This document shows, in pieces, positions 10,223-43,047 of a stretch of DNA of 43,047 bases. The stretch is from Candidatus Altimarinota bacterium. GTDB lineage: Bacteria; Patescibacteriota; Gracilibacteria; BD1-5; UBA2023. A program made the translations under genes and the position numbers. The stretch spans positions 1-43,047 of the forward strand of contig JANPGO010000060.1 in the NCBI GenBank assembly GCA_031423995.1. The letters run 5' to 3'. Positions within the stretch are counted from its first letter, which is position 1, and every line of letters begins with the position of its first letter. The notes below the pieces were generated by a model. It was not told the origin of the DNA, ran no database searches, and saw only the letters and a list, made by a program, of their open reading frames with translations.

Positions 10223-11737
10223 ATGCACGCACTCAATATCGCCTTCGATGGCAAGAGCTCATCTGAACTCAAGGAATTCATCTCAAAAAACAGAGAATTA
10301 TTCTCATCATGAGGGATCCATATCAAGGTCAATGACCTCCTCTCAGAGATCGGGATCGAGTGACTGAAGTTGCTCGCTTGAGAAATCCGGGATGAAACCT
10401 GAATCGATATCATCTGGATGATCGATGGGAAATGGTACGATATCCCGAATACCGTTGCGAACTATGCGAAGAGACTCGATGGACTCGATGTCGCATACTA
10501 CACCGTCCATGCGAGTGGATGAAGAGAGATGATCCAGGCAGCGAAAAAAGCAGCACCAAATACCAAGCTCCTCGCCATCACGATCCTCACCTCGATGCAG
10601 GATGATGAAGTAGTAGATATATATGATGCCAATCGTGCAGATTCTATCCTCCGCCTCGCGAAGTCAGCACTTGCAGCTGGTGCAGACGGGCTTGTCTGTT
10701 CGCCTGCAGATGCTCCGATGCTCAGGGAAGTATTCGGTTATGATTTTCTCCTCGTCACTCCGAATATTCAACGTGAATGAATAGAAAGAAAAGATGATCA
10801 GAATCAAGCTCTCACGAATACTCCACGCGGCGCGATCGAGAATGGTGCCTCAGATATTGTCGTTGGACGACCGATCCTCACGGCAGAGAATCCTGGAGAA
10901 GTCATACGAGAGACATTGGAACAAATGGATGCTGCTCAAGCCCCAATGAGAAGGGGGGAAGTCTGCCATAGCGGACAGGGGGGTTCTGTTTCTAGTCCAT
11001 TCGCCTTCGAAAAACTCCTCCACACTGGAGACTGGGAATCAGTCCTGAAATACATCGGTGCTATCTATATACGACCTATGTGAGGGAAATATGTCCGCTA
11101 TACAAGTGGTCTCATTGCCGATGCTTATACCAATATGGGCGTTCCAGAGAGAGACTATCGTGTACTGCATCGAGTCTGACATGATATCGCAGGACAACTC
11201 CATCAGGCGCACATATCCCCTGACTGAGTCATCGGTGCCCAGATGGGATCTGTCCGTCTCTCACTGTCACTTGCAGAGGCACTCAGTATCCCGGAAAGTC
11301 TCTATACAGAGAAGGATGGTGATAGCATGCTCCTGAAGCGACATGAACTCGGGGATGATGGGCTCAAGGGAAGGAAGATCATCCTCTCAGAAGATGTCAT
11401 CACGAAGGGTTCGACGATAGCGAAAATGATCGAAATCGTAAAAAATGGTGGTGGGGAAGTCGTCGCTGTTACCTGTATCGTGAATCGAAGTGGGAAGGAT
11501 AATTTCGACGGAATACCACTCTTCCACTGCTACACACCAGCACCATTCCAGATGTGGTGGGATGAGAAAACACTCGAAAAAACCCGAGCCAATGAACAGG
11601 CAACAGGGAAATCACCAGAAGAGATCGAAGCTATCATCACAGCACTCCAGTCGAAGTATCCGAGACTCCCATCCGATGCAGAGATATCTGAGAAGCCAAA
11701 AAATGAATGGAATGAACTCGTAAGAAGTATGAGATAA
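10223..11737 (+). CDS. pyrF-pyrE: Fused orotidine-5'-phosphate decarboxylase / orotate phosphoribosyltransferase (504 aa)
   Basis: DGKWYDIPNTV, TVHASGG, LLAITILTS, IVVGRPI in the N-terminal half; IILSEDVITKGSTI PRPP-binding loop in the C-terminal half; no TAA/TAG between them. Confidence 0.92.
10941..10985. repeat. Family B half-element in the PyrF-PyrE linker
   Basis: CCCCAATGAGAAGGGGGG-GTCTGC/GCGGAC hairpin-GGGGGGTT, same layout as 670-721 and 39449-39484. Confidence 0.7.
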
Positions 11738-19161: not shown

Positions 19162-19815
19162 TTGTTCACAGATTCTGATCTCAGTCACATCCTCAGTATA
19201 CTCGTAGAGCTCTATGGATGAAAGAAAATAGAGCTCAATTACGAAACGCCATTTCAGCTTCTCTGTGCTGTTATCCTCTCGGCACAAACAACTGATAAGC
19301 AAGTTAATCGAATTACACCACCATTTTTTGCACTGGTTCGGGAAGCATGAGATGTAGAAGATCTCTCTCTTGAAGCCATCGAGTCACATCTTCGATATGT
19401 GAATTTTTATCGAAATAAATCAAGATACATAAAGGAAACTGCTTCTCGTCTTGCCCGTGAATACAATGGATGCATTCCCAATGAACTCAAACTCTTGCAA
19501 ACTTTTCCAGGTATTGGCATCAAAACGGCCAAGGTAGTTCTCTCGGTCCTCTATGATATGCCGTATGTAGGTGTAGATACCCATATTCATCGTGTGATGA
19601 ATCGTCTTGGAATCGTCATGACAAAAACCCCAGAACAAACTGATAAAGCAATCGATGCGATCTTTTCTCAGGAACAGAAACGAGTACTTCATCATCCAAC
19701 AGTGCTTTTTTGACGGTATACCTGTACAGCGAGGAATCCAAAGTGTAGTACTTGCAAACTCAAAAAATGGTGTACATATTATCATGCACACCATAAGGAG
19801 AAGACTGAAGACTAG
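19162..19815 (+). CDS. nth: Endonuclease III
   Basis: PFQLLCAVILSAQTTD, PGIGIKTA, VDTHIHRV, CTARNPKCSTCKLKKWC [4Fe-4S] motif; TTG start. Confidence 0.95.
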
Positions 19816-22800
19816 AAGCTCAGTTGCCCGAGGAGAGCATCGAGCGAAGGATCTGAGGATAGATCTGTTGATCCGTTCAATTGATTTCTCGAAGTTGAGC
19901 TAGATGGTGCGGAATTCAGATCTCGATTTGTCATCTCTTCATACATTCTCTGATGGAATTTGAGAATTCTGAGAGCATACTCTTTCGTGAGAGTCAATCG
20001 TACATCTCCATTCGTCGAAACAAGTTGTATTTGAATAAGAGCGTTGTCTATTGCTCATACCGGATCATTTGAAGTTTCTGCTTCTCAGAGAACATGACGA
20101 ATAATGGCTCTCAGATACACAGCTGTATCATCTACGAGGGAAAGTCTTGGGAGCATAGTCTCAAGTGCCGATTGAGCAGAGGTTACTGTTTCGCTTGGAG
20201 TTATAGTGAGCTGATCTGGATGATTGATTTTGAGTCCTGATGCCGTGAGTTCACGATTCATAAGGAGAAGCTGGGAAGCGAGTCCTGTAGAATCATTTGC
20301 CATAGTGAAGACCGTACCATTAATTGTCTGATGCTGTTGTATTCCTGGTGTATTTGGTGCAGAAGTGAATGTATCACCTCCCGAAACTGCACTACTCGAT
20401 CCACCTCAACCACCGCCATTTCATACAATCGGACCTTGAATGATCACTGCCTGTGTTGGATCAATGGTCCTAATAGTCACCATTCCAGTACTACTCGTAA
20501 GGAGACCATCTGAAACGGTATACGTAAATGAATCACTTCCAAAGTACCCAATCGTCGGAGTATAGATAAACGATCCTGAAGCATTAAATACGAGTATCCC
20601 GTGTGATGGACTTCCTATCTGTGCATAGCCAGTAATGACACTATCAACATCTGTTCAGAAAAGCATACCACTGAGGACATTTCCAGAATTTGATACTGTA
20701 TTGCCTGTCATATTGTATGCGACATTATTCGCAATTGGTGCATCATTCACTGGGAGGACAGTGAGTGTAACTGTCTTTGATGCTGAAGAGAGTGATCCAT
20801 CTGTTACATGGTAGGTGAATGAGAGTATTCCATTGTAGTTCAGTGCTGGAGTGAAATTCACTGTTCCAGAAGACTGAAGTGAGAGTGTTCCTGTAGCAAC
20901 TGAGGTATCAAGAACATATGTGATCGGATTGCCATCAGGATCACTGCCAGAAAGTGTGAAAACCTTCAGTGTATCTTCGTTGGTGGTAAATGAACCACTC
21001 AAAGCTACCGGTGCAGTATTGGTTGCATTTGCACTCATCGTGATATTCACAACAGCGGGATTACTATTCGCGATTCCGTCATTTGCTACATAGGAGAATG
21101 TATCACTACCGACATATCCGACATTTGGAGTATAGGTGAACACCCCTGAAGCAGTCATAGAAAGTATTCCATTTGACGGCAATGCTGCTGAAGTAAAGCT
21201 AAAGGTAACACTATCAATATCTGTCGCTGTTCCTGTGAATATAAGGTTGTGGGTATTGTCAGCAATAATATTTCCTGTGATGGTAAAGCTTCCAGATGCA
21301 GCAATTGGTGCATCATTGACTGGAAGAACATCAATCGTAACGGTCTGGATTGGAGAAGGGAGGAGTCCATCTGTTACATGATAGGTGAATGAGAGTGTTC
21401 CATTATAATTCAGAGCCGGAGAAAAATTCACGGTTCCAGAAGATTGGAGAGAGAGAATGCCTGAAGGTGTTGATGTATCAAGTACATAGGTCACTCCATT
21501 TCCATCTGGATCACTGCCTGAGAGTGTGAAGCTCACTAGAGTATCTTCGTTGGTGACGAAGGAACCGCTGGAAGCGAATGGTGCAGAATTGATACCAGAA
21601 ATCATGAAGTCTACTGTTCCAGTATTTGAAACTGCCTGTCCATCATCAATTCTGAAGGTAAATGAATCAGTTCCTGTGTATCCATAGGCTGGAGTATATG
21701 CATAGATCCCTGTACTCGTCATATTGAGGAGTCAGTGAACTGGAAGGGTTGATGCAGCATACGTGAGAATCATGCTATCGATATCTGAACCTGAGAGTGT
21801 TCCGGTGAAAGTATTTCCACTACTTGCATAGGAATTTCCAGCAATAGTATGGGAAGCATTGTAAGCAACTGGTGTATCATTGACTGGAGTGATCGTCAGA
21901 CTTATTGAGGCAGTATTTGAGTCATAGAGACCATCATTGACATGGAAACTAAAGGAATCAGATCCATTGTAGTTCGGATTTGGAGTGTAGATAAACCCTC
22001 AAGTTCCATTCAGAGAGACTGTTCCGCTTGTTGGAAGAGAGTTGAGAATATAGGTGAGTGTGGCACTCTCTGGATCAGCAGCAATAAATATTCCTGTCAA
22101 TGAAGTATCCTCACTGAGAGAAAGAGAAGCTCACGTCGCTACTGGTGGAGTGTTCGATGGAGCTACAGTCAGTGTGACCGTCGCGAGATTCGAAATGAGT
22201 GAAGTCTCATCGACGAGACGGTAAGAGAGTGAATCGCTACCAGAATATCCCGTGTTCGGTGTGTAGAGAAATCCTGAAGCTGTAGGAGAAATGCTTCCAT
22301 TGGTAGGATTCGAGAATCCAGTGAGTGTCAACTGCCCTGAGAGAGAATCGACATCATAATCATTATTCATGACCGGAACAAAGAACGATGTGTCTTGAAC
22401 AAGTGAGAATGCATCATTGACTACAACTGGCGCATCTGGGACAGAAGTGATATTGAAATCGATATTGGCTCATGAAGAATAGGCAGAACCATCGAACACT
22501 CGATAGATGAACGTATCAGTTCAATTATAGTTCAGTGTCGGCGTATAGCTAAAGGATGATCCTATAAGTGAAACGGTTCCATGAAGCGGAAGGGTACTCA
22601 CAGTGAATGATAGGGTATCAGGATTGATGTCAGTTCATGAGAGTGTTCCCATAAAGTTAGTATCCTCATTTGTCACGTAGACAGCTCCAGAGTCTGTCGG
22701 AGGGGTATTCGGTACACTGACGGTGATATTGACGGTTCCAGTGTTCGAAAGAGCTCCACTCTGATCCTGAAGAGAATAAGTAAAACTATCAGGTCAGATA

Positions 22801-25643
22801 TATCCATTATTGACAGCATATTGGAACTGATTTCCATTAATAATAACAGAGCCATGAATTGGTTGTGTAAAGCCAGAAAGAGACAAAGTCTGAGCTACAT
22901 ATGGACTATCTGGATCTGTATCATTGGCAAGGACATCGAAGTTGGTAAGTGCCCCTGTGACGGTCATAGAATCATTGACTGCAACAGGTGCATCATTCAC
23001 ACAGTTGACGACGATAGAAGCACTGACAGGATCTGCATAGTTACTATACTGATCATATGCTCGGTACATGAATGTATCTACACCACAGAAATTTGGATTC
23101 GGTATATAGGATGCCGTTCCAGAGATATCGATCGAGAGAGAGCCATTCGGTGGATTGACAAACTGATCAAAAAAGACCGTATCACCAGGATTGTAGTCGA
23201 CTCCAGAAAGTGTTCCAATAATGAGAGGATCGTCCTCGTTTCCAGAGAAGCTCACTGGAAATACCACTGGTGGAGTATTCGTCGTCGTCACATCTACTTG
23301 GTTGATTCGTGAGCCGATCTCGTTCTGCGTGTAGAGATAGGTTGTTGACGTTGCGCCAGTAGGTGGCTCGAAATATATATCTCAGATATTTGAAGCAGGA
23401 ATATTCACGGATCCTGTAACAGTCGTATATGCAAGATTTGTCTGAGTTGAGCCGGTAGCAATCCATGACACATGTGCAAGTGTACCGCTCGGAATAGAAC
23501 CAGAGTCAATTGTCATAGAAACGGTTGGAACCGTCACAAGGTTGGGACTGTTATTCCAGAGAGCAAGACTTGCTGAATGAGCAGGCAGAGAGAGAGAAAG
23601 TGTTGGCCATCCAGTCGTTGCATTCGAAGTATCTACATACTGTGCACAAGGCACTCCTGAGGGACAAGACTGAGAGATTGATGTGCTTCCAGTATTCACG
23701 AGAACGAGCACTTCATTCACATTTGTATTCTTTTGGACGATATTTTTGCGACGGATACTCATCTCATCGATTTCTAGAGGAATATTTTGATTCGAGATTT
23801 CGAGTGCAAACTGTGCATCAGTCGCTGTCGTATTCGCATAAATATAGTATAAAAATGAACGACCAGTACTCATAGAATATGTTTCTGCATTACTATCAGA
23901 GTAGAGTGTAGTTTGGTATCATGCCCTATGGAATGATCATTTTATATTCAGACTTCCTGTCACTGACGATTTCAGGTATCCTGATACTTCATAAACTTGT
24001 CCACCCGTAATAGAAAGTACTGAATTGTTTGTTATATACATGTGACTCGGGGTGCTATCCTGAGGAGCAATCATCATAGATGATCAGCTGTATGATCAAC
24101 TTACTTTTTGTGTAAGAGTTGGAGCGAGTCATGTAGATGTACTGGGAGTCCATCCGGAAACATCAGTCTCAAAGCTCGGATTCGTGAGGAGATTCGCTGT
24201 CACATATGAACCTGTATTCGTATATGGCTTGTATCCGAAAGATTGGAACACATTTGCACTCGGATCAAATGAGGTAATACTTGATTTCGTCGCATATTCC
24301 ATACTTTCTCATCAGAATTTTATACTTCTGATATACGAAGTATCTGGCTTATAGAGTGTGACAAAATTATTCCCAATTGCAGTGATGAGTGAGGCAGTTC
24401 CTGTTCCTGGAGTTTCATCTCGCATCTCGATATATGGATATTCTACGTTGCGTTGGAAGAGAGTATTACTATTCATACTAACATTCGCAACAGTTCCTGG
24501 AGTATTCTGTATCACTAAGATTGAGTTTCTTGGAGCGTTGAGGATAGTATTTGAGTTGATAGCAGTATTTGATGAGTCAATGAGATGAATACCATTATTT
24601 CAAACAAGTGAAGGTATATACTTGATAATATTAGAACTGATATTTACTGAGTCGACTGATGAGAGCCATATGCCATCAGCGCTTGAGTACTCTATGTAAT
24701 TGTTTATGATAGTGGAATTGTAAATTGTTCCTGTATTGTAATTTTGAATCACTCAACAAAGATTGACTGTATTGCCAGCTATACAAGGGAATCAGCCATC
24801 TGGACTATAAAAAATATTATTTTGGATGGTTGTATTTGGACTCATAGCAATAGCAGAATAAAGTGCTCCTCCAAATTTATAAGGAAAAGTATTGCTCTGA
24901 ATAAGATTAATCCCGGTTCATGTCATAAAAATTCCGTAATAATTATATTGAATTATATTATTTTGGATGGTTGAATTACTATTATTGATATTTATTGCAT
25001 CATGAATACGATCATCGAAATTATTATTATCCACAATAACGCTCGTAGAGCTCGTAGAACGAATCCCCGAAATACTATGCGATGAGACTCAGCTAAAGCT
25101 ATTCCCCGAAATAGTAATAGTATCTGTAGAAATGATACGAAGTAAGTCAGTGAGTGTATTCCCACTAAAGCTAAATTGGCTGTTGGTTACATTGATATTA
25201 TTTGAATTATTGACTACTCCCGCACTTCATGAACTCGAGAGGAGTTTTAGGTTGTTAATATTGACGAAATTAGCACTAGAAATACTCATATTCTCAATCT
25301 GAGGTCTATTTGTTGTAGTACATCATGTTCCATAAGAATTATATGTGATAGGTGAACCAAAAATACCTGACTCGAATGAATCAAGCGTTCCTGTCCATGA
25401 TTCTCCACAGAGAAATGATACTGTATCTCCCTGAGAAAAAGTCTGACCATTTACAAATGCAACTGATCGCCAAGGAGTTGCTGGTGAGAGTCAATCATTG
25501 GTATCATTCCCAAGCGTTGCATCGACATAGTATTGCGTCGATGCTGCAAACGTATACTGTATTGTTGGTGCGAGCGTATTTGAGAGAAATGCTGAGAATA
25601 CCAGAGAAGCGAGTATTCGGTAGAATATATTTGTATGTGTCAT
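19812..25643 (-). CDS. Giant secreted/surface protein (~1943 aa): beta-helix, CBM-like region, ~10 cadherin-like/tandem-95 Ig repeats
   Basis: Track fragments 19812-24515 share one frame; signal-like N-terminus, [23 protein letters not shown] opening, Asn-rich strands, ten N-x-[AP]-P-[VIF]-type repeats with YTPxxxYxGxDSF. Confidence 0.88.
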
Positions 25644-32354: not shown

Positions 32355-33020
32355 TTATCCAATCTTTTTGAGTTTTTTGGTCGTGAATTGGTATTGGTAT
32401 CGAGAATAGAATGACTCTTCTGTATCTGTATGATACTCTTCTATATCGAACTGGATGCGACCATCCTCGAGTGCCCTGTACATGCTCCGCCCGACACAGA
32501 GAGTACTACTCGATTTAGGTAGAGCGACCATTCGATCGAGACGCATGCGTGCAATCCTCGTCATATCGAGGAGATCATCAGGACCGGTCGTACAAGTATT
32601 GCGATCATAGCCGACAAGGGAATATGAGAGGTAGTTTCCGAGGATCCAGTTGAGCTTGCCAAAGGCAGTCCCTCCAAAAGAACGAACTTGAGGATAGAAC
32701 TTCACCTTCGACCGACTACAGTCATACGATGCGAGATAGGAACCATCATTTCTGAGGATCGCACCAGGGATTTCTGGATTATTTCCATTTTTTCGATAGG
32801 CATCGAGGGTTGCCTGATCTGGGAAGACATGGATGAAGTAGTAGAGAAACCCGTCTTTTTTCAGGAATTCATCGACTCTCACGAACTTTCCTGGCCAGAG
32901 AATATAGACTTCATTCTGATGAATTCCTTCGGGATAGGCACAGGCATCTTGCTTCGAGAGACTGCTTGCGAAGGAAAGGGTAGGGAAGATGATGCAGAGT
33001 AAAACAAGAATTATTTTCAT
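32355..33020 (-). CDS. Secreted hypothetical protein (221 aa)
   Basis: Signal peptide MKIILVLLCIIFPTLSFA; uninterrupted ORF. Confidence 0.8.
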   Translation of the reverse strand: MKIILVLLCIIFPTLSFASSLSKQDACAYPEGIHQNEVYILWPGKFVRVDEFLKKDGFLYYFIHVFPDQATLDAYRKNGNNPEIPGAILRNDGSYLASYDCSRSKVKFYPQVRSFGGTAFGKLNWILGNYLSYSLVGYDRNTCTTGPDDLLDMTRIARMRLDRMVALPKSSSTLCVGRSMYRALEDGRIQFDIEEYHTDTEESFYSRYQYQFTTKKLKKIG

Positions 33021-33064
33021 AAGAAGGTATCAGACAGTAGTTATCAGTTATCAGATTGGTATTT

Positions 33065-33709
33065 TTATCTATATAGTTCACGATATGGATTCACATAACG
33101 GATAAATGAGTTAAATACTGGCCTATTAAGACTAAAATATTCAGAATTATAGCTATAGTTCAATCAATTACTTAACATTAAATCAGTATGCTCAGAAAAA
33201 TCTTCAAATCTTGTAAATACTTTTGTGACTGACAACTTATCTCCTACATTAATTTTTATCATTTCATTATCGATTTTTATAGAACTTCATGTAAAAACAC
33301 AGTTGGGATCAAGTGAAAGATTTTGAAAATCAGATGGGTTTTCTACTTTAGAATGATAAAAATCATATAGACAATATGCTTCAATACGACTACTAAAACA
33401 CACAGAATCTTTATAACAAAAGCCATTTTTTATAACCTCAATATTTTCTCACTTGAGGATAGGAGTAAAGTAAGGTATATTAGTAATATATTTGTTAAAA
33501 GTAAATCAAACTACTGAAAGTAAAAAAATACTGATGATCCAAATTCTTGATGATTTTCATTTTAAAAAAAATCAAATAAATCAAAGGATAAGTATAGCAT
33601 ATCTATCTTCAAAAAAAATCAATATTTCACTCTCACTAACAGAAAATGAGAGACGGATTATTCCATATATTATAGCAATACGAAAAAAAATAAGTATTAT
33701 TGATTTCAT
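33065..33709 (-). CDS. AT-rich hypothetical membrane protein (214 aa)
   Basis: Open frame with UGA=Gly; about three N-terminal TM segments and a Cys-containing soluble domain. Confidence 0.65.
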
Positions 33710-33718
33710 TTTAATACT

Positions 33719-34339
33719 TTACAATACCTTATCAATAAGCCCATACTTCAGTGCATCCTCGGCAGTCATATAGTTATCACGGTCACAGTCCTTGCGGACG
33801 GTGTCGATTTTTTGTCCTGAATGCGTCGCGAGGATCTTATAGAGGACTTCTCCCGTCTTGATGATATGATCGGCGGCGATCTTGATATCGATTGCCTGTC
33901 CTTCCATGCCCCCAAGTGGCTGATGGATCATGATCTCTGAGTGTTTCAGTGCATAGCGCTTTCATTTTGCACCACCTGCGAGGATGATCGATCCCATCGA
34001 GGCTGCCAGCCCGACACAGACAGTGACGACATCAGGCTTTACGTGTTGCATCGTATCGTAGATCGCGAGCCCTGCTGTGACATGTCCTCCAGGAGAGTTC
34101 ACGTACATGGTGATAGGAGCCTTCGGATCGGACTTCTCGAGGTAGAGGAGCTGGGCGATGACGGTATTCGCGACATTGGAGTCGATCGCATCTCCGAGAA
34201 ATATAATACGGTCCTCGAGAAGTCTCGAGTAGATATCATAGGCTCGCTCCTGACCACCGACCTTATCGATAATGGTCGGGACGAGGAAGTCAGAGATAAT
34301 TTTCGATTTTTTTCCTTTTGTTTGGACTTTCTTGGACAT
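33719..34339 (-). CDS. clpP: ATP-dependent Clp protease proteolytic subunit
   Basis: [47 protein letters not shown]. Confidence 0.98.
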
Positions 34340-34468: not shown

Positions 34469-35077
34469 ATGAAAAGTTTTTCTAGTTTCGTATTGATTGC
34501 CCTGTGTACTCTCGGGAGTATAGTACTCGTCTCCGCTGAGTGAGGAAATATGTGAGGCGGACAGATGGGAAGATGAATGCAGTCGGGTGAAAATGGTGGA
34601 TGAATGATGAAAAAGGGACAAAAAATGGAAGGTGGAATGATGGGAAGTGGAGCCGTACGACCAAAGATGGGAAGTGGCATGATGATGCCTCGTGATGGGA
34701 TGAAGGGAGGGAAGTCTCAGTCTGGGACAACTGTTCTCACCTCTGAGCAACTCACGTGTCTGCGAACTGCAGTTGCGAAGAGAGAATCAGCACTCATGGG
34801 AGAGGTCACAATGATGAATAGCACTATCAGTTCTGCGTTCATGACTCGTGCAACTGCACTCGACAGTGCCTACCAGGTATCTGACAAAGAAGCTCGAAAG
34901 ACTTCCGTCGATACAGCTTGGTCGATATTCAAATCCAGTACTGATATAGCAAGAAAGACTGGTCAGGATACACAGAAATCTACGTGGGATACGTTCAAGA
35001 CAGATACAAAAGCATGTAATGTCTGAGGGGCTGATACTGATGGCAATAAACCGATGATGATGGAAATGGCTCAATAA
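34469..35077 (+). CDS. Secreted Met/Gly-rich protein with helical C-terminal domain (202 aa)
   Basis: Signal peptide, GGMM low-complexity tract, helical domain bounded by two Cys (LTCLRTAVAKRE...FKTDTKAC). Confidence 0.8.
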
Positions 35078-35089
35078 GGAGTAAATTCG

Positions 35090-35118
35090 AAAAAAGTCTA
35101 CTTTTGTAGACTTTTTTT
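35090..35118. terminator. Intrinsic terminator
   Basis: AAAAAAGTCTAC-TTTT-GTAGACTTTTTT. Confidence 0.8.
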
Positions 35119-35208
35119 ATTGATAATCTGCTCCACGATTCGGCTGTTGCAAATAATCAACAAATTTATATACTAAGAATTGTTTTAAACATTCTAATTC
35201 TTTTAACT

Positions 35209-35703
35209 ATGAAAAACAGAATTTTTTCAGTATTTTTTATACTAAATTTAGTACTAATAGCATTTTCATTCATGACAATCAATGGTTATGCAACGACAGA
35301 AAGTAAATCAATAGAAAAAAATGGAAATTCCATGAAATCAAAAACATCTCTAGGTACTAAAAAATTTATGTCATTGGATTTATATCTACAAAATAAGGAA
35401 ATAGCAGAAATTCTTGATTGTGGTGCTACACGGAAAGTTACATATCAAGTACCTAGAACCATGTCGCCCATACACGTATCGTTAAAAATACTTTTCGAAA
35501 AGGAACTCGCTCGTTATGGTACGTATAAGTCAGTGATAGTTTCAAAGGGTATTGCTCGGGTGTATCTAAAGAAATTTTATAATCCAGCTCTGAGTAGTTG
35601 TGAAAGTAGCCACCTCGTCTCAGTAATAGAAGATACCCTTACTCAATATAAGAGTGTTCAGTCCATTGAACTCTATTCCCCAAATGGACGTATACAATTT
35701 TAA
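35209..35703 (+). CDS. Secreted GerMN-like domain protein
   Basis: Signal peptide; IARVYL...LSSCESSHLVSVIEDTLTQYKSVQSIEL; own promoter TTGCAA-16 nt-TATACT at 35147-35174. Confidence 0.7.
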   Translation: MKNRIFSVFFILNLVLIAFSFMTINGYATTESKSIEKNGNSMKSKTSLGTKKFMSLDLYLQNKEIAEILDCGATRKVTYQVPRTMSPIHVSLKILFEKELARYGTYKSVIVSKGIARVYLKKFYNPALSSCESSHLVSVIEDTLTQYKSVQSIELYSPNGRIQF

Positions 35704-35762
35704 GAAAGAGAAACTTTTGTAATGTAATATTGATAACATATAACTTTTATTTCTTATATACT

Positions 35763-37304
35763 ATGTCCCTCCTCACAGATATTATCACTCACTATACTTT
35801 TTCTGGAAAATCATTTCCCATCGGTCTCGGTATGGAGAAATGATCTGTCCTTCCAGGAGCGATTGTCTCACTTCCACTCTCCACGATGAATCGTCATGGA
35901 CTCATCGCTGGTGCGACCGGAACCGGGAAGACGAAGACACTCCAGAAGATGATCGAATCCCTCTCGGTCAATGGTGTCCCAACAGTCGTGATGGATATAA
36001 AGGGAGATGTATCTGGGTTGGCACTTCCATGAGAAATGAATGAAAAAATCAGTGAGAGACTCTCGATCCTCGGGAAATCAGACTGGAAATGAACAGGATT
36101 CCCGACGGAATTCTATACCCTCACTGGCGCCCAGTGAGTGAAACTCAGGGCAACGGTCAGTGAATTTTGAGCCGTTCTCTTTGCTCGGCTTCTCGAGCTC
36201 AATAATACGCAGGAAAGTGTGATTGCGCTGATATTCCAGTATTGTGATGATACTGCTCTCCTCCTCATTGATCTGGAAGATGTAAAAAAGGTCCTACAAT
36301 ATCTCTCAAATGAAGGAAAGGAGGAAATCGAAAAAGAATATGGCATGATCTCAACGTCGACCGTTGGAACGATCATGCGAAAGGTGATCGAACTCGAGTC
36401 ACAAGGGGCAGCAATATTTTTCGGTGAACCGTCATTCGAAGTTGTTGACCTCATGCGAACCGATGAGAGTGGAAATGGTTATGTGAATATCATCCGTCTC
36501 ATGGACATGATGACTCGACCGAAGCTCTTTTCGACCTTCATCCTCTCGCTCCTCTCTGAAATCTATAATACTCTCCCTGAAGTTGGGGATATCGAGAAAC
36601 CGAAGCTCATCCTCTTCATCGATGAAGCACACCTGATCTTCGAGAATGCTTCATCCTCGCTTCTTAGAGAAATCGAGATGATCATCAAGCTGATTCGATC
36701 GAAGTGAGTGGGGATATATTTCTGTACACAGAATCCGATCGATATCCCAGCAAATATCCTCGCTCAGCTCGGATTGAAGGTACAGCATGCACTCCGTGCC
36801 TTCACCGCGAAGGACCACGAAACCATCAAACGTGCGAGTGAGAACTTCCCAACCACCGAGTATTATGATGTCGCCCATGATCTCACGACACTCGGGATCG
36901 GAGAAGCCTTCATCACGGCTCTCGATGAAAAGGGTATCCCAACCCCCCTCGTTCACACGATGATCGCACCCCCTGAGTCTCGTATGGGAATCCTCACGGA
37001 GAGTGAACTCATGGGTCTCACGAGTATCTCCCCGCTCATCTCGAAATATAATATCATCCTCGACCGCGAAAGTGCCCGAGAAATTCTCGAAAGGAGAGTA
37101 TCAGAAAAAATAGCACAAAATACTCCATCGATGATGGAAGGTATGATGAGTGGCACAACGGGGAAAATCGCAAAAAATGTCGGAGGCACCCTTGCTGCCG
37201 AGCTCGGTCGTACACTCGGAAGGTCTCTCGGTGGACGCACGGGTGGAACGATCGGTGCACAGATCGCGAGAGGACTCCTCGGATCTATTTTTGGGGGAAG
37301 ATAG
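35763..37304 (+). CDS. HerA-like / DUF853 (YjgR-type) ATPase
   Basis: [62 protein letters not shown]. Confidence 0.93.
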
Positions 37305-37347: not shown

Positions 37348-37648
37348 TGTCATTTCGAACAAAATTTTAGGGTAAATTTTCGTGAGAAATCTTCCTTCTA
37401 ATGTTTCATAAATATGTCTGAAGAGATGTACATCTACATTCTTACGAACCACTCTCACAATACCTTCTATACTGTTGTCACGAACAATCTCAAAAGAAGA
37501 ATCCTTGAGCATCGACAAAAACTACCGTCGAGAAAAGAAAATTTATCTCATAGAATCGATAAATCTATTTTGGAAAGATCTTTCTGAAAATTGGTACAAT
37601 TAAAAGGAAGATTTTTCCTTCTCACTTCGCATAGAAGTCGAAATAACT
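37348..37648 (+). pseudogene. Decayed family A GIY-YIG element (nuclease remnant 37414-37603)
   Basis: MYIYILTNHSHNTFYTVVTNNLKRRILEHRQK, then an internal deletion/frameshift to RREKKIYLIESINLFWKDL; flanked by TGTCATTTCGA..GAAATCTTCCTT and AAGGAAGATTT..TCGAAATAAC. Confidence 0.85.
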
Positions 37649-37710
37649 TTCTTATAAGTTATTTATAGAATACCGTATTTTTATCATTTGGTTTCTAATC
37701 ATAACTTCTT

Positions 37711-38807: not shown

Positions 38808-39932
38808 ATGCAAGTCGGAATCGTCGGTCTCCCCAATGTTGGTAAATCCACACTTTTTAATGCGCTCACCAAATCCTATGCTGCCGAGGCAGCGAACTTC
38901 CCATTCTGTACGATAGAACCAAATGTCGGAATCGTGAATGTGAACGACGAACGTCTTGAGCAAATCCGTGTGGTCGTGAATGGGGCGAAGATCATCCCAG
39001 CGACTGTCGAATTCGTCGATATCGCAGGGCTCGTCGAGTGAGCAAGTAAGGGTGAATGACTCGGAAATAAATTCCTCTCCCATATCCGTAGTGTCGATGC
39101 TATCCTTCAGGTCGTCCGAGCCTTCGATGACTCCACTGTCCACCATGTAAGTGGCTCAGTCGATCCCAAGCGTGATATCGAGATTATCAATCTCGAACTG
39201 ATATTCGCTGACCTCGAGACTCTCGATAAGCGCATCGGTGACAATCAGAAAAAGGTACGAGCCGGGGATAAGGAAGCAAAATCTCGGGAAGATATCTACA
39301 ATAGACTCAAGGCACACCTCGAATCAGGAGCAATCGCCTCCCTCATGGAAATGACCGACGATGAGAAACTCGCCGTCGCCGACCTCCATCTCCTCACCAA
39401 TAAGCCATTCATCTATGCCGTGAATGTGACAGAAGATTGGTTCTCGAGCCCCCCTGAAAAGGGGGGTAGCGAAGCTGGGGGGTTCAATGACACTGAACTC
39501 AGAGCAATTACTGGCATTTCAGACTCCAAAATCCCGGTCCTTCCCGTAAGTGCGAAGATCGAGATGGATATGCTCGAATTCTCCGAAGAGGATAAGAAGA
39601 TGTTCCTCGCAGATATGGGGATCGACTTCAATCCGATGGATACGATTATCCGGACTTGCTATGATCTCCTCGGACTCCAGTACTACTTCACCGCAGGGGA
39701 GATCGAGGTGCGAGCCTGGACGATCCATCAGGGAGATACAGCTCCTGTCGCTGCAGGAGTGATCCATACGGACTTCCAGAAGAAATTCATCAAGGCAGAA
39801 ACCGTGAACTGGAAGAATCTCGTCGAATTCGGAGGATGGTCAGGAGCACGTGAGAAGGGAAAAGTACGCATGGAAGGGAAGGAATATATCGTCGCGGATG
39901 GGGATGTGATGTTGTTTAAATTTGGGGGGTAA
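38808..39932 (+). CDS. ychF: Obg-family ATPase YchF
   Basis: [48 protein letters not shown] (two TGA), [20 protein letters not shown]. Confidence 0.98.
39449..39484. repeat. Family B half-element, in frame in ychF
   Basis: CCCCCCTGAAAAGGGGGG-AGCGAAGCT-GGGGGGTT; encodes SPPEKGGS, identical to the peptide in the LepA insertion. Confidence 0.82.
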
Positions 39933-39951
39933 TTCTTAATAAGAAATTATC

Positions 39952-40335
39952 ATGAAAATTCATCGAAATACAATACTTAAATACGTGATTGCCTCATCAT
40001 ATATTACGATATATCTAGTGCTATTGATGAGAGGAATATTTTTTCCTAAACCCATTATTCCCAAATTAGGAATAACAGAGGATTGGGATCCAGCATTATT
40101 AATGATTATAAAGCAATGACTTCTCTTGCTTTGTCTATGTATCATACTCTATACAATAGATAAAATATTTTTTCTGTATAGAAAAAATATTACAAACACT
40201 CTTCTCACTCCCGAAGAAAAAAGAATAAAACTGTTTCAATCTCTCCTCTTCTGAATCAATAGCTTTTTCACGGCTATAACATTACTTCTTTTTTTGGACA
40301 ATATCTATTATTTTATATTAGATAATCTTTTATAA
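39952..40335 (+). CDS. AT-rich hypothetical membrane protein (127 aa)
   Basis: Open frame with UGA=Gly; three hydrophobic segments. Confidence 0.6.
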
Positions 40336-40528
40336 GATGACATATAAACTTTTGGCCTAATCCTTGTCACTCCTTTAAAATTTCATATTTTGTATATTCT
40401 TTATACTCTTTTTCAAAAAAAGATATACAAAAATCCAATAAAAAAAAATCCCCTTCACGTTCCGTTGGCTTGAAAAGATTTTTGCATTTTATCGAAACGA
40501 GATATAATCAGTACATAATTTCAAGAAT

Positions 40529-40717
40529 ATGAACCCCATTAAAAATCAGGATATAGATACAACATCCACGATCTATTGGACAAAGTTTATATCTTTTCCA
40601 AAGGTTTCTACAAAAAAGGAGCGAATCGACGCTATCAATGCACGACTTCTTCGAAGTGAAAAATCGAAGAATCCAAAACAAGATATTTCTGAATATGATA
40701 TTGCGGCATATTTTTAA
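40529..40717 (+). CDS. Putative antitoxin (62 aa)
   Basis: Small ORF directly upstream of a PIN-domain gene. Confidence 0.55.
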   Translation: MNPIKNQDIDTTSTIYWTKFISFPKVSTKKERIDAINARLLRSEKSKNPKQDISEYDIAAYF

Positions 40718-40729
40718 GAAAATTCTCAT

Positions 40730-41116
40730 ATGTTCATTATTGACTCAAGTATTTTTTGTGCATGCTTCTTAGATGAGGATACGAACCATGAAAGGGCGAA
40801 AGTACTCTTGTGAGAAATCGAGGAACGGATATTGGTTCCATATATCGTCTTGAGTGAGGTGCTGACTGTATTGACCTATAAACATTCGAAAGATCGTGCA
40901 AATGAATTTGCAGATTTTATACTCTCAGATAATCGATTCATTTTGATAGATGCAGACATGACGAGTGAGGTATATTTCTGGAAATCGATCGATAATAATC
41001 TCTCCTATATCGATATTGTCCTGACCTATGTTGCCCTTCGAAACGATGCCACTCTCCTCACCTTTGACGATGCAATGATAAAGTTCTATCAAAAAATCCG
41101 AGAAAATAAATCGTAA
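40730..41116 (+). CDS. PIN-domain (VapC-like) ribonuclease toxin
   Basis: MFIIDSS...DTNHERA, VLSEV, LSYID, LLTFD acidic PIN motifs; 128 aa. Confidence 0.88.
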
Positions 41117-41195
41117 AAAAATCCCTTTCACGATACGTTGGCTTGAAAAGTTATTATAAGAATAACTGTATTATATCTGCTTACCAATTACAATC

Positions 41196-41477
41196 ATGCA
41201 CTTACAAGATTCACAAATACTCATTCTATTTTTTGTATTCCACATTATTCTTTTTAGTAGTTTTTCTGTCCTAAAACTCAATATTCTTACTTGGAGAATC
41301 ATAACGATTATTCTTGTTTTAGTAGAACCGTACCTCATTCTCTGGCTGATGGGATGATGAGGTCCAGATAATATCTGAGCATGAATCTGAATTATGATTT
41401 TATATATTGTAGTCTGATTTCCGATTTATATACTTTCAGGAATAGTCTATCTCATCTGAAAGCAGCTTCAAAAATAA
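41196..41477 (+). CDS. Small three-TM membrane protein (93 aa)
   Basis: Open with UGA=Gly; stop codon abuts the third repeat. Confidence 0.65.
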
Positions 41478-41770
41478 AAAAATCCCCTTCACGTTTCGTT
41501 GGCTTGAAAAGATTTTTTAGCCTGTGAGGGGATTTTTAATTCATACCTTTTCTTCACGTTGGTATGAGACGAGGTCTACTGCACTTAGGTTAGTTTTACG
41601 AGGATAACCAGCTTTTGTATTGATTTGATATTCCTTTATGGAAGATCGGTTTGTATAGAAAGCATAGTGCTTTGTATGTGTATTTATTTTTTTCTGGAAC
41701 TTCGATCGGTTTAAGCGACCAAATCTCAGAAGGCGGCGAGTGAAGTTCACCAGTGCTCGTGAAGTAGACA
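41476..41770 (-). ncRNA. Candidate structured ncRNA (~295 nt); alternatively an 84-aa basic ORF at 41517-41771
   Basis: TTGACA(41804-41799)-17 nt-TAAGAT(41781-41776) promoter; nested long-range stems; terminal hairpin 41478-41537 followed by a U run. Confidence 0.4.
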
Positions 41771-41929
41771 TAGGAATCTTAGCATGCTTTGGATTCCCTG
41801 TCAAAAATTTGAACCCTTTTTTTCGCTCATTTTCGAACAATAGGTAGAGAGTCCTTTCCCAGACTGGAGAATCGGGAAAACTTGACTAAATCCTCCCAGT
41901 CGCTACACTCTGCTCAATCTCTCTTTTCT

Positions 41930-43047
41930 ATGCTTTCTGATCTTATTGCTCGAGTCATCGCCGTACATCCTGACTTCACCCATGCGGAAGTCGAGGAAGT
42001 ATGTCGTGACTATCTCGACTCGATCACTGAGAAGATCAAGGAAGAGACCAAGATGAAACGCCTCGTGAAGTATATGGAGAAGGAATTCGAGCTCGATAGT
42101 ATGAAGCTCGAGAAGAAATCAAATCGTATCTATTCGCTCGAATCCATTCCTGAATCACTCTTTCGTGGGAAATCGAGCATTGCCTCGAGCCTCGTCACTA
42201 TCCGTAATCTCACGAAGAATATCGAACAGACGGAACTCTTTCTCGATGCCGAGCTCCAGATCAACCGTGAGGACAAGATCGCACTCATCGGGAAGAATGG
42301 AGCAGGGAAGACTACACTCCTGAAGATGATCATCGGTCGAGATGATGACTATAAGGGATCGATCGAACGGGCTACAGGGCTCCAGATCGGATACCTCTCA
42401 CAGGATCTCTTCTGGCAGGATACAAGAAATACTCTCAAGGAAGAGATGCTCATGGTATTTCCCGAGATCAGTGCACAGATCGATCGACTGCATGACATCG
42501 AGCACGATGATGCTCACTGGGAAGAGATTGATATGATTAATAGTTATCTGAGGGAAAACGATGGCTATCGAAAGTATGAACTCCAGACAGAGATACTGAA
42601 GTATTTCTGATTTTCTGACGAACAGCTCGATCTCAATGTTCTCTCACTCTCAGGAGGGGAGCAGACCAAGGTCCAGATCGCGAAATTCCTCATCACCGAG
42701 GTCGATCTCCTTATTCTCGATGAGCCGACGAATCACCTCGATATCGAAGGGATCCTCTTTCTCGAGAAGTTCTGCAAAATCTGGAAAAAAGCTATCATCT
42801 CGATCTCGCATGATGTCCGATTTATCGACAATACTGCGGACACGATCATCGAGATTTCTCAGAAGAAGCTCCATCTCTATCCGGGCAAGTATGAGAAATA
42901 CCAGATCGAGAAACAGGCTCGCTATGATCGACAGATGAAGGCTCACGAGCTCCAGAAGAAGGATATCGAAGAGCAAGAAGCCTGGATCAATCGATTTCGC
43001 TATACGCCGAGCAAGTCCGCGAGTGTCCAGAGTCGCATCAAGCAGAT
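41930..43047 (+). CDS. ABC-F family ATPase, 3' end outside the window
   Basis: GKNGAGKTT, GYLSQD, LSGGEQTK, ILDEPTNHLD, ISHDVRF; promoter TTGACT-16 nt-TACACT at 41882-41909. Confidence 0.93.

Follow-up and report, generated by a model that had tools for sequence, protein, structure and literature searches.

The window analysed here is a 43,047-nt stretch of chromosomal DNA from an uncultured bacterium of the Gracilibacteria (GenBank assembly GCA_031423995.1, contig JANPGO010000060.1). Between its ychF gene and the terminator of a minus-strand transcription unit lies a strain-variable islet of about 1.6 kb (39933-41537), in which small genes are bounded by direct copies of a 43-nt repeat that we call R. 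The repeat corresponds to the final ~45 nt of this unit, the ychF-proximal half of its terminator, and consists of the loop, the descending arm and the U-tract of its terminator. We consider it somewhat probable that the islet is a locus-specific hotspot of accretion and deletion, where recombination at R builds and trims the array. This reading is supported by the confinement of R to one locus, the exact breaks in homology between genomes, the differing contents between those breaks, the retention of internal R copies and the identity of R with the 3' end of the unit. The proposed mechanism would be recombination at R with catalysis supplied in trans, and its basis is a comparison of three genomes.

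An earlier note on this DNA, made from the letters alone, had drawn attention to the right-hand part of the islet as a tandem array of serially captured cassettes delimited by part of a terminator hairpin. The observation is confirmed and the interpretation is partly supported. The note had the array start at 40443; it begins instead at the ychF stop codon (39932), with a 127-residue open reading frame (ORF) in the first slot.

The repeat and the modules between its copies

A repeat search gave one family at the locus, with three direct copies of 50 nt (100, 76 and 92% identity) at 40434-40483, 41107-41156 and 41468-41517, the spacing between copies being 673 and 361 nt. R was taken as the 43-nt unit within these copies, which places R1 at 40441-40483, R2 at 41114-41156 and R3 at 41475-41517, all on the plus strand. 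When a 29-nt core of R written in IUPAC code was searched with up to three mismatches, it matched the window three times, always at an R copy (0.00 matches expected from 100 shuffles), and either half of R alone, searched with the same tolerance, found only these three places. We then have a view beyond the window from a scan of a genome collection of 185,579 species, where R was found at two loci, one each in two Gracilibacteria metagenome-assembled genomes (MAGs), L001 and L002; both are the same locus between the housekeeping genes ychF and ABC-F. The scan demanded an exact match to a pattern of 24 letters with 21 specified bases, a setting that diverged copies would escape, and the MAGs are incomplete. 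As far as such a scan of such genomes tells, R is specific to this locus and is not a dispersed repeat or terminator family of the repetitive extragenic palindrome (REP) kind. A dispersed generic terminator family would have counted against the reading of the earlier note; the window has three of its three copies at the locus, and the two other genomes have one locus each.

The copies differ in their capacity to fold. R3, the terminal copy, forms the left arm and loop of a bidirectional terminator and is closed into a hairpin by a complementary arm at 41519-41537 (plus strand), a unique sequence that is kept in both L001 and L002. The predicted fold of R3 plus this arm had a free energy of -23.7 kcal/mol (z -3.58), and none of 200 shuffled sequences did as well. 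R1 and R2 are internal copies. R1, from which the complementary arm is absent, gave z scores of +0.08 on the plus strand and -0.16 on the minus strand, and R2 gave -0.49 and -1.37, in both cases no better than shuffles. Hence the claim that only the third copy has its complementary arm holds, as does the statement that the repeats are not attC-like, the internal copies having no fold of their own. The constant ACG-nnn-CGT mini-stem with a variable loop proposed in the same note is not borne out by the predicted fold, in which the far arm is the partner of the ACG and the triplet that varies sits in an unpaired bulge. Over the seven R copies of the three genomes this triplet reads TTC, ATA, TTT, TTA, TTA, TTC and TTA. 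By eye, R showed no apparent dif-like 11-6-11 layout of the type known from the replication-terminus sites of Xer/dif systems and integrative mobile elements exploiting Xer recombination (IMEX).

The ORFs of the window were read under NCBI translation table 25, where TGA encodes glycine; under other tables most conserved genes, ychF, the ABC-F ATPase gene and lepA among them, would be interrupted. Virtually all conserved genes have TGA as a sense codon, and gene calling under code 11 would fragment the contig. Under code 25 the three direct repeats bound a VapBC-like pair and a membrane-protein gene, as had been described. The first slot holds the 127-aa membrane ORF (39952-40335, plus strand), which has two TGA glycine codons, takes up the space after the ychF stop and matched no family in protein-family scans. 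R1 follows, and abutting it is a promoter-like site (TTTGCA-16-TATAAT, 40481-40508, plus strand) upstream of a 62-aa ORF (40529-40717, plus strand) that stands in the position of a VapB-like antitoxin, 12 nt before a PIN-domain (VapC-like) gene (40730-41116, plus strand). The latter contains one TGA glycine codon, which is conserved in its L002 orthologue. Its PIN domain matched Pfam PF01850 with an E value of 3.1e-14 (54.0 bits against a cut-off of 23.6), and the NCBIfam VapC models matched it only below their cut-offs.

We regard the 62-aa ORF and the PIN gene as a putative VapBC-like toxin-antitoxin pair. The arrangement, a PIN gene placed 12 nt after a short ORF and supplied with its own promoter, is that of VapBC type II systems. 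The toxin half of the earlier assignment stands on its PIN domain; the antitoxin half is not matched by a family, and here the pair departs from described VapBC systems, as the 62-aa partner falls outside all described families and the relatives found for it make up just four protein clusters (97, 81, 79 and 77% identity), with 43 of its 62 columns invariant. Beyond R2 lies a glycine-rich membrane ORF of 93 aa (41196-41477, plus strand), an orphan for which neither a homologue nor a family was found; it has seven TGA glycine codons and reaches R3 only under code 25.

The junctions between genes and repeats are tight. The TAA stop codon of vapC (41114-41116) supplies the first bases of R2 and that of the 93-aa ORF (41475-41477) the first bases of R3, which agrees with the earlier observation that the second and third repeats start at the stop codons of the preceding genes. 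Of the seven module ORFs that come up to a repeat in the three genomes, four run into R, their stop codon lying within it or directly adjoining it, and in a fifth the stop falls 3 nt before R. Modules measure 0.36-0.67 kb (the first-slot gene of L001 is about 1.05 kb). Because every module reads TGA as sense and the vapC TGA is conserved in both orthologues, the module pool belongs to organisms that use code 25.

The same locus in two related genomes

Three metagenome-derived genomes were compared: the window, the closer relative L001 and the more distant relative L002. The conserved left flank is ychF, encoding the ribosome-binding ATPase (38808-39932, plus strand; Pfam YchF-GTPase_C at 2e-35, and MMR_HSR1), and the conserved right flank is the ABC-F ATPase gene (41882-43045, plus strand; Pfam ABC_tran and ABC_tran_Xtn). 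In blastn comparison with L001, homology ended exactly at the ychF stop at 39932 (94.2% identity over 926 nt) and resumed at 41474, at the first bases of the terminal R (92.8% over 41474-43047). Comparison with L002 gave a left break at the ychF stop as well, with ychF 84.5% identical and the terminal R plus downstream sequence 94.9% identical. The identity of ychF is 94% to L001 and about 84-88% to L002. Flanks and terminal hairpin are thus conserved in both relatives, and the contents between the breakpoints differ in three of three genomes; fixed content in relatives, which would have spoken against a mobile array, was not found.

Between the breakpoints the window reads, in order, 127-aa membrane ORF, vapBC, 93-aa membrane ORF. 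L001 has one Acyl_transf_3 gene in three fragments followed by a single R with the full hairpin. In L002 the order is a 149-aa membrane ORF; a degenerate R, mismatched to the other copies at 12-17 of 43 positions; two paired genes, of which the second has a weak likeness to ParE (E 0.023, short of the cut-off); an R; vapBC; and the terminal R. The module genes lie on the plus strand in all three genomes, and the first-slot genes of the genomes are unrelated to one another (E 0.21 and 3.4). R copies and modules are equally numerous in each genome: three in the window, one in L001 and three in L002. With the degenerate L002 copy set aside, R copies differ pairwise at 1-7 of 43 positions. R2 is the most divergent of the window copies, with 5-7 mismatches to the non-degenerate copies and 17 to the degenerate one.

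The vapBC module is common to the window and the more distant L002 and is absent from the closer L001. Its interior is 89.7% identical between the two genomes that carry it, and R1 together with the promoter and the 5' untranslated region (40442-40528) is the same at 87 of 87 aligned bases as the copy that precedes vapBC in L002, which argues that the internal R copies are constrained or homogenised. The stretch 40442-40690 is nearly identical in the two genomes, vapC being 85.6% identical, and this near-identity of the left part would fit either a later exchange or constraint. A unit composed of R and ~27 nt of promoter opens not only vapBC but also the unrelated toxin-antitoxin-like pair of L002. 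At third codon positions vapC is 73.6% identical between the window and L002 and ychF is 75.5% identical. As vapC has diverged to the same extent as ychF, vapBC was present in the common ancestor of the window and L002 and was lost in the L001 lineage. Serial capture, the earlier interpretation, fares unevenly: the content is variable, as it supposed, but capture itself is only inferred and differential loss, as of vapBC in L001, explains part of the variation.

The L002 copy of the toxin gene (L002 36-530, minus strand) starts with ATA rather than ATG and has no stop codon at R, so that its frame continues across R and into the RNA unit for about 40 codons. That gene may be decaying, while its 62-aa partner stays 97% conserved.

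The base composition of the locus stands out, with a low G+C content of 0.31-0.37 from 39933 to about 41880 against about 0.42-0.49 in the surroundings. A phage or plasmid source was not indicated, blastn of 39933-41880 giving no match in 50,697 phage and 72,556 plasmid records.

The minus-strand unit that ends in the repeat

The unit whose 3' end is R extends from promoter to terminator over about 300 nt (41470-41770, minus strand). As the earlier note had it, the repeat is part of the terminator hairpin at the 3' end of this minus-strand transcription unit. A sigma-70-like promoter site (TTGACA-17-TAAGAT with an upstream TG; 41776-41804, minus strand) precedes it; both hexamers are the same in L001 and three substitutions fall in the spacer. 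The ABC-F gene, transcribed in the opposite direction, has a promoter-like site of its own at 41882-41909, with a probable start at 41930, and there too both hexamers are the same in L001 and the substitutions are confined to the spacer. The intrinsic terminator of the unit is probably shared with transcripts coming from the ychF side.

Given its conservation and its thermodynamic fold, the unit is probably a gene for a structured non-coding RNA, oriented divergently from ABC-F. The region 41538-41775 is identical to L001 at 233 of 238 nt and 41538-41628 is identical to L002 at 87 of 88 aligned nt; the third-codon identities of the flanking genes are 85.7% for ychF and 81.2% for ABC-F in L001, and 75.5% for ychF in L002. 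The minus-strand fold of 41470-41772 had a z score of -5.26, matched by none of 100 shuffles, and the plus strand gave -2.25. ARAGORN found no tRNA or tmRNA gene, and Rfam gave no match at its gathering scores and nothing credible at E values up to 10. The best Rfam match, CRISPR-DR21, scored 27.1 bits against a gathering score of 48 and was merely the hairpin. A protein-coding explanation for the unit, an ORF of 84 or 107 aa on the minus strand (41517-41840), was also rejected: all five differences between the window and L001 are non-synonymous, the tail is frame-shifted in L002, and the sole relative in the protein collection is the 96%-identical L001 copy.

The interior of the candidate RNA contains echoes of its 3' end. 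An 11-mer at 41552-41562 (plus-strand coordinates), which is the R core minus its middle 5 nt, lies in the loop of the hairpin adjoining the terminator (one match against 0.01 expected). The 6-mer CTTCAC occurs four times in the 303-nt RNA candidate, two per strand (41487 and 41552 on the plus strand, 41740 and 41759 on the minus strand), and 42 times in the window. These repeats of CTTCAC and of the R core may reflect loop-loop pairing within the RNA or a repeated protein-binding motif.

Assembly of the array and its relation to known elements

If recombination at R built the array, R3 would be the working copy, with R1 and R2 marking module boundaries, and R would be the place at which modules of 0.36-0.67 kb, all in one orientation, are added and removed. 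The modules encode small membrane proteins or toxin-antitoxin pairs, each pair under a promoter of its own. A module would be gained when a circle or fragment bearing R integrates, and lost by deletion between two R copies. The enzyme would act in trans and could be of the tyrosine-recombinase type, or RecA could act with R serving as portable homology.

A number of observations weigh against this scheme. No recombinase was found among the 67 window ORFs or in the compared stretches of L001 and L002, and the three assembled loci contain no circular or empty-site junction; the comparison itself comprises only three genomes. There is no R beside the ychF stop, though the first slot varies too, and R copies equal modules (3, 1 and 3) rather than modules plus one, unless the first slot is exchanged by some other route. 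As vapC is as diverged as ychF, its module is old, and some of the variation reflects loss instead of capture. Differences at 6 of 43 positions separate R2 from R3, the copies on either side of what is putatively the newest module. On the RNA side, 0 of 59 predicted pairs had a compensatory change, in a comparison of only two near-identical sequences of which that from L001 was without the terminator.

The chief rival explanation, which we consider possible if doubtful, is homologous exchange, for instance following DNA uptake, with the conserved flanks as anchors: ychF on one side, and the RNA unit with ABC-F on the other. R would then be a functional 3' module under selection, and R in a plus-strand mRNA may pair with the 3' end of the minus-strand RNA, to which it has predicted complementarity. 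Variation of a first slot that has no R on its left, with the break exactly at the ychF stop, is what such exchange would give, as are the equal numbers of R copies and modules, the conservation of internal R beyond the neutral level, the failure to find a recombinase among the scanned ORFs and the mosaic vapBC block shared by the window and L002 (near-identical over 40442-40690, less so in vapC). Exchange between flanks leaves unexplained how unrelated genes each came to have a 43-nt sequence that is otherwise unique to the locus, and the internal copies lack the partner arm and so are not terminators.

We find it rather unlikely that the modules are the stumps of larger integrase-bearing elements that inserted at the RNA 3' end and were then eroded, their small size being a product of decay. 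Such a route is described for tandem elements at the 3' ends of tRNA and other genes in two reports (PMC5704250, PMC3146451). Signs of decay are present at the locus in the three-fragment Acyl_transf_3 gene of L001, the vapC of L002 that has neither ATG nor stop and the degenerate R of L002 (12-17 of 43 positions mismatched). An integrase fragment was recognisable in none of the seven modules of the three genomes, the tight packing of ORFs against R (four of seven running into it, a fifth 3 nt short) is unexpected of random deletion, and two unrelated toxin-antitoxin modules open with the same unit of R plus promoter.

That R belongs to a generic dispersed terminator or palindromic family, or that the array was mis-assembled from metagenome data by way of the repeat, is very improbable. 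This genome has other short, recurring G/C palindromes and all three sequences are metagenome-derived, but the halves of R are absent elsewhere in the window, an exact 21-base match found one locus per genome in two genomes, and the junction of R, promoter and vapBC is present independently in two assemblies. For a chimera to form, single reads would have to cover R together with the sequence on both of its sides. An integron-type cassette array without an integrase, that is, a cluster of attC sites lacking integron integrases (CALIN), would share the small co-oriented modules, the toxin-antitoxin genes with their own promoter and the repeated site between modules, but is scarcely credible here, as internal R folds no better than shuffles on either strand, the second arm of the terminal hairpin is unique chromosomal sequence and integrase families have no match among the 67 ORFs of the window.

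The earlier note had likened the array to an islet at lepA, where the last 13 codons and stop of the gene (2103-2148) recur 580 nt downstream (2683-2728) with 80% identity. By eye, both 46-nt copies encode the same 13 residues by way of synonymous changes. The insert between them (2149-2682, 0.54 kb) contains a 115-aa orphan ORF (2151-2498), and the arrangement looks as though an element had supplied lepA with a substitute 3' end that came from another, diverged lineage. The likeness is one of geometry, a duplicated 46-nt 3' end with a 0.54-kb insert, and does not extend to sequence: the lepA repeat has no similarity to R, 45-85% of shuffles reaching the same alignment score. The R array and lepA are the only intergenic families of direct repeats in the window, the other four lying in an adhesin gene or appearing chance-like. 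A single general micro-cassette mechanism for both loci would be conjecture by analogy. A bolder form of it, which we think unlikely, would give Gracilibacteria an integron-like capture platform of a new type. Machinery acting in trans would shuffle sub-kilobase code-25 modules at a double-stranded 43-nt site, which would also serve as the terminator of a structured RNA, and the lepA islet would be a second target. The RNA would perhaps take part, its 3' end being complementary to the R tag that every module transcript would carry and its loops repeating the R core.

Other features of the window were recorded alongside. Scans for recombinase, integrase and transposase families had no match among its 67 ORFs, in agreement with the earlier remark that no integrase is nearby. 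An ORF at 37414-37668 (plus strand), between genes for a HerA-like ATPase and a patatin, has a weak GIY-YIG nuclease match (E 1.4e-4) slightly under the cut-off. Two further patches of low G+C content, 33001-34000 (0.32) and 35001-36000 (0.35), contain orphan membrane ORFs such as that at 33065-33709 and may be accessory islets; the repeat search saw no repeats flanking them. Most of the other direct repeats of the window are ~570-nt units inside the gene of a 1943-aa surface protein (19812-25643, minus strand), an adhesin with a beta-helix N-terminus and ten stretches each of Big_9, Cadherin_4 and Cadherin_5. A short G/C-rich palindrome occurs in frame within conserved genes at 39450-39465 (ychF), 671-686 and 756-771 (lepA) and 10942-10957, giving four matches at up to three mismatches against 0.07 expected; the corresponding position of ychF in L002 (about 2300-2370 in L002) holds a palindromic insert of its own, longer than this one and unlike it. 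These palindromes look like in-frame palindromic insertion elements.

Among described systems the best reading of the locus, by analogy, is a miniaturised, integrase-less counterpart of the tandem islands found at the 3' ends of tRNA and tmRNA genes. Published cases are the ssrA islands of Dehalococcoides, which stand in tandem and have repeats of 20 bp (PMC3146451), and tycheposon islands with partial tRNAs in Prochlorococcus (10.1101/2020.12.28.424599), and tandem islands split by partial tRNA or tmRNA 3' ends include members without an integrase (10.1101/2020.12.28.424599; PMC3146451; PMC5704250). The locus shares with them boundary repeats that copy the 3' end of the unit, a contiguous copy (R3) that is intact with its arm, and variable content inside conserved flanks, three genomes giving three arrays. 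It differs in that the target is the terminator of an unclassified ~300-nt unit, that the units measure 0.36-0.67 kb where PMC3146451 gives ~7 kb for one amplified stretch of integration module plus cargo, that none of seven modules has an integrase and that the host is a code-25 member of the Gracilibacteria. Cis-mobilizable elements (CIMEs) of the ICESt1 family, as PMC5704250 describes them, keep att-like repeats, have no integration or transfer genes and follow one another in tandem at a target gene's 3' end. Like them, the modules would be tandem non-autonomous units with putative att-like repeats; unlike them, they look compact and not decayed, and no functional neighbour is present, CIMEs being decayed integrative and conjugative or integrative and mobilizable elements that such a neighbour moves. 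Titles and abstract openings of the literature on Gracilibacteria and Patescibacteria, and on integrase-less elements at small-RNA genes, contained no array of this kind.

Integron arrays and CALINs consist of small co-oriented cassettes, include toxin-antitoxin cassettes with their own promoters and have a repeat at the 3' end of each cassette. The locus departs from them in that R is not a self-folding attC site, no intI is present and the terminal site lies in the terminator of an RNA gene.

Bacteria of the candidate phyla radiation have tiny genomes, and their gene exchange is little known. Should the modules prove to be mobile units, the principle of islands at RNA 3' ends would reach down to the size of integron cassettes and take in a target outside the tRNA and tmRNA genes; if only decay and homologous exchange are at work, this would be a flexible islet of the ordinary sort whose boundary repeat is unusual. 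A further outcome is a conserved RNA candidate of ~300 nt that is so far unclassified. TGA is a sense codon in all the modules, which thus seem to circulate among lineages with code 25, and the locus would provide a defined, PCR-addressable hotspot for the gain and loss of accessory genes, a few hundred bases at a time.

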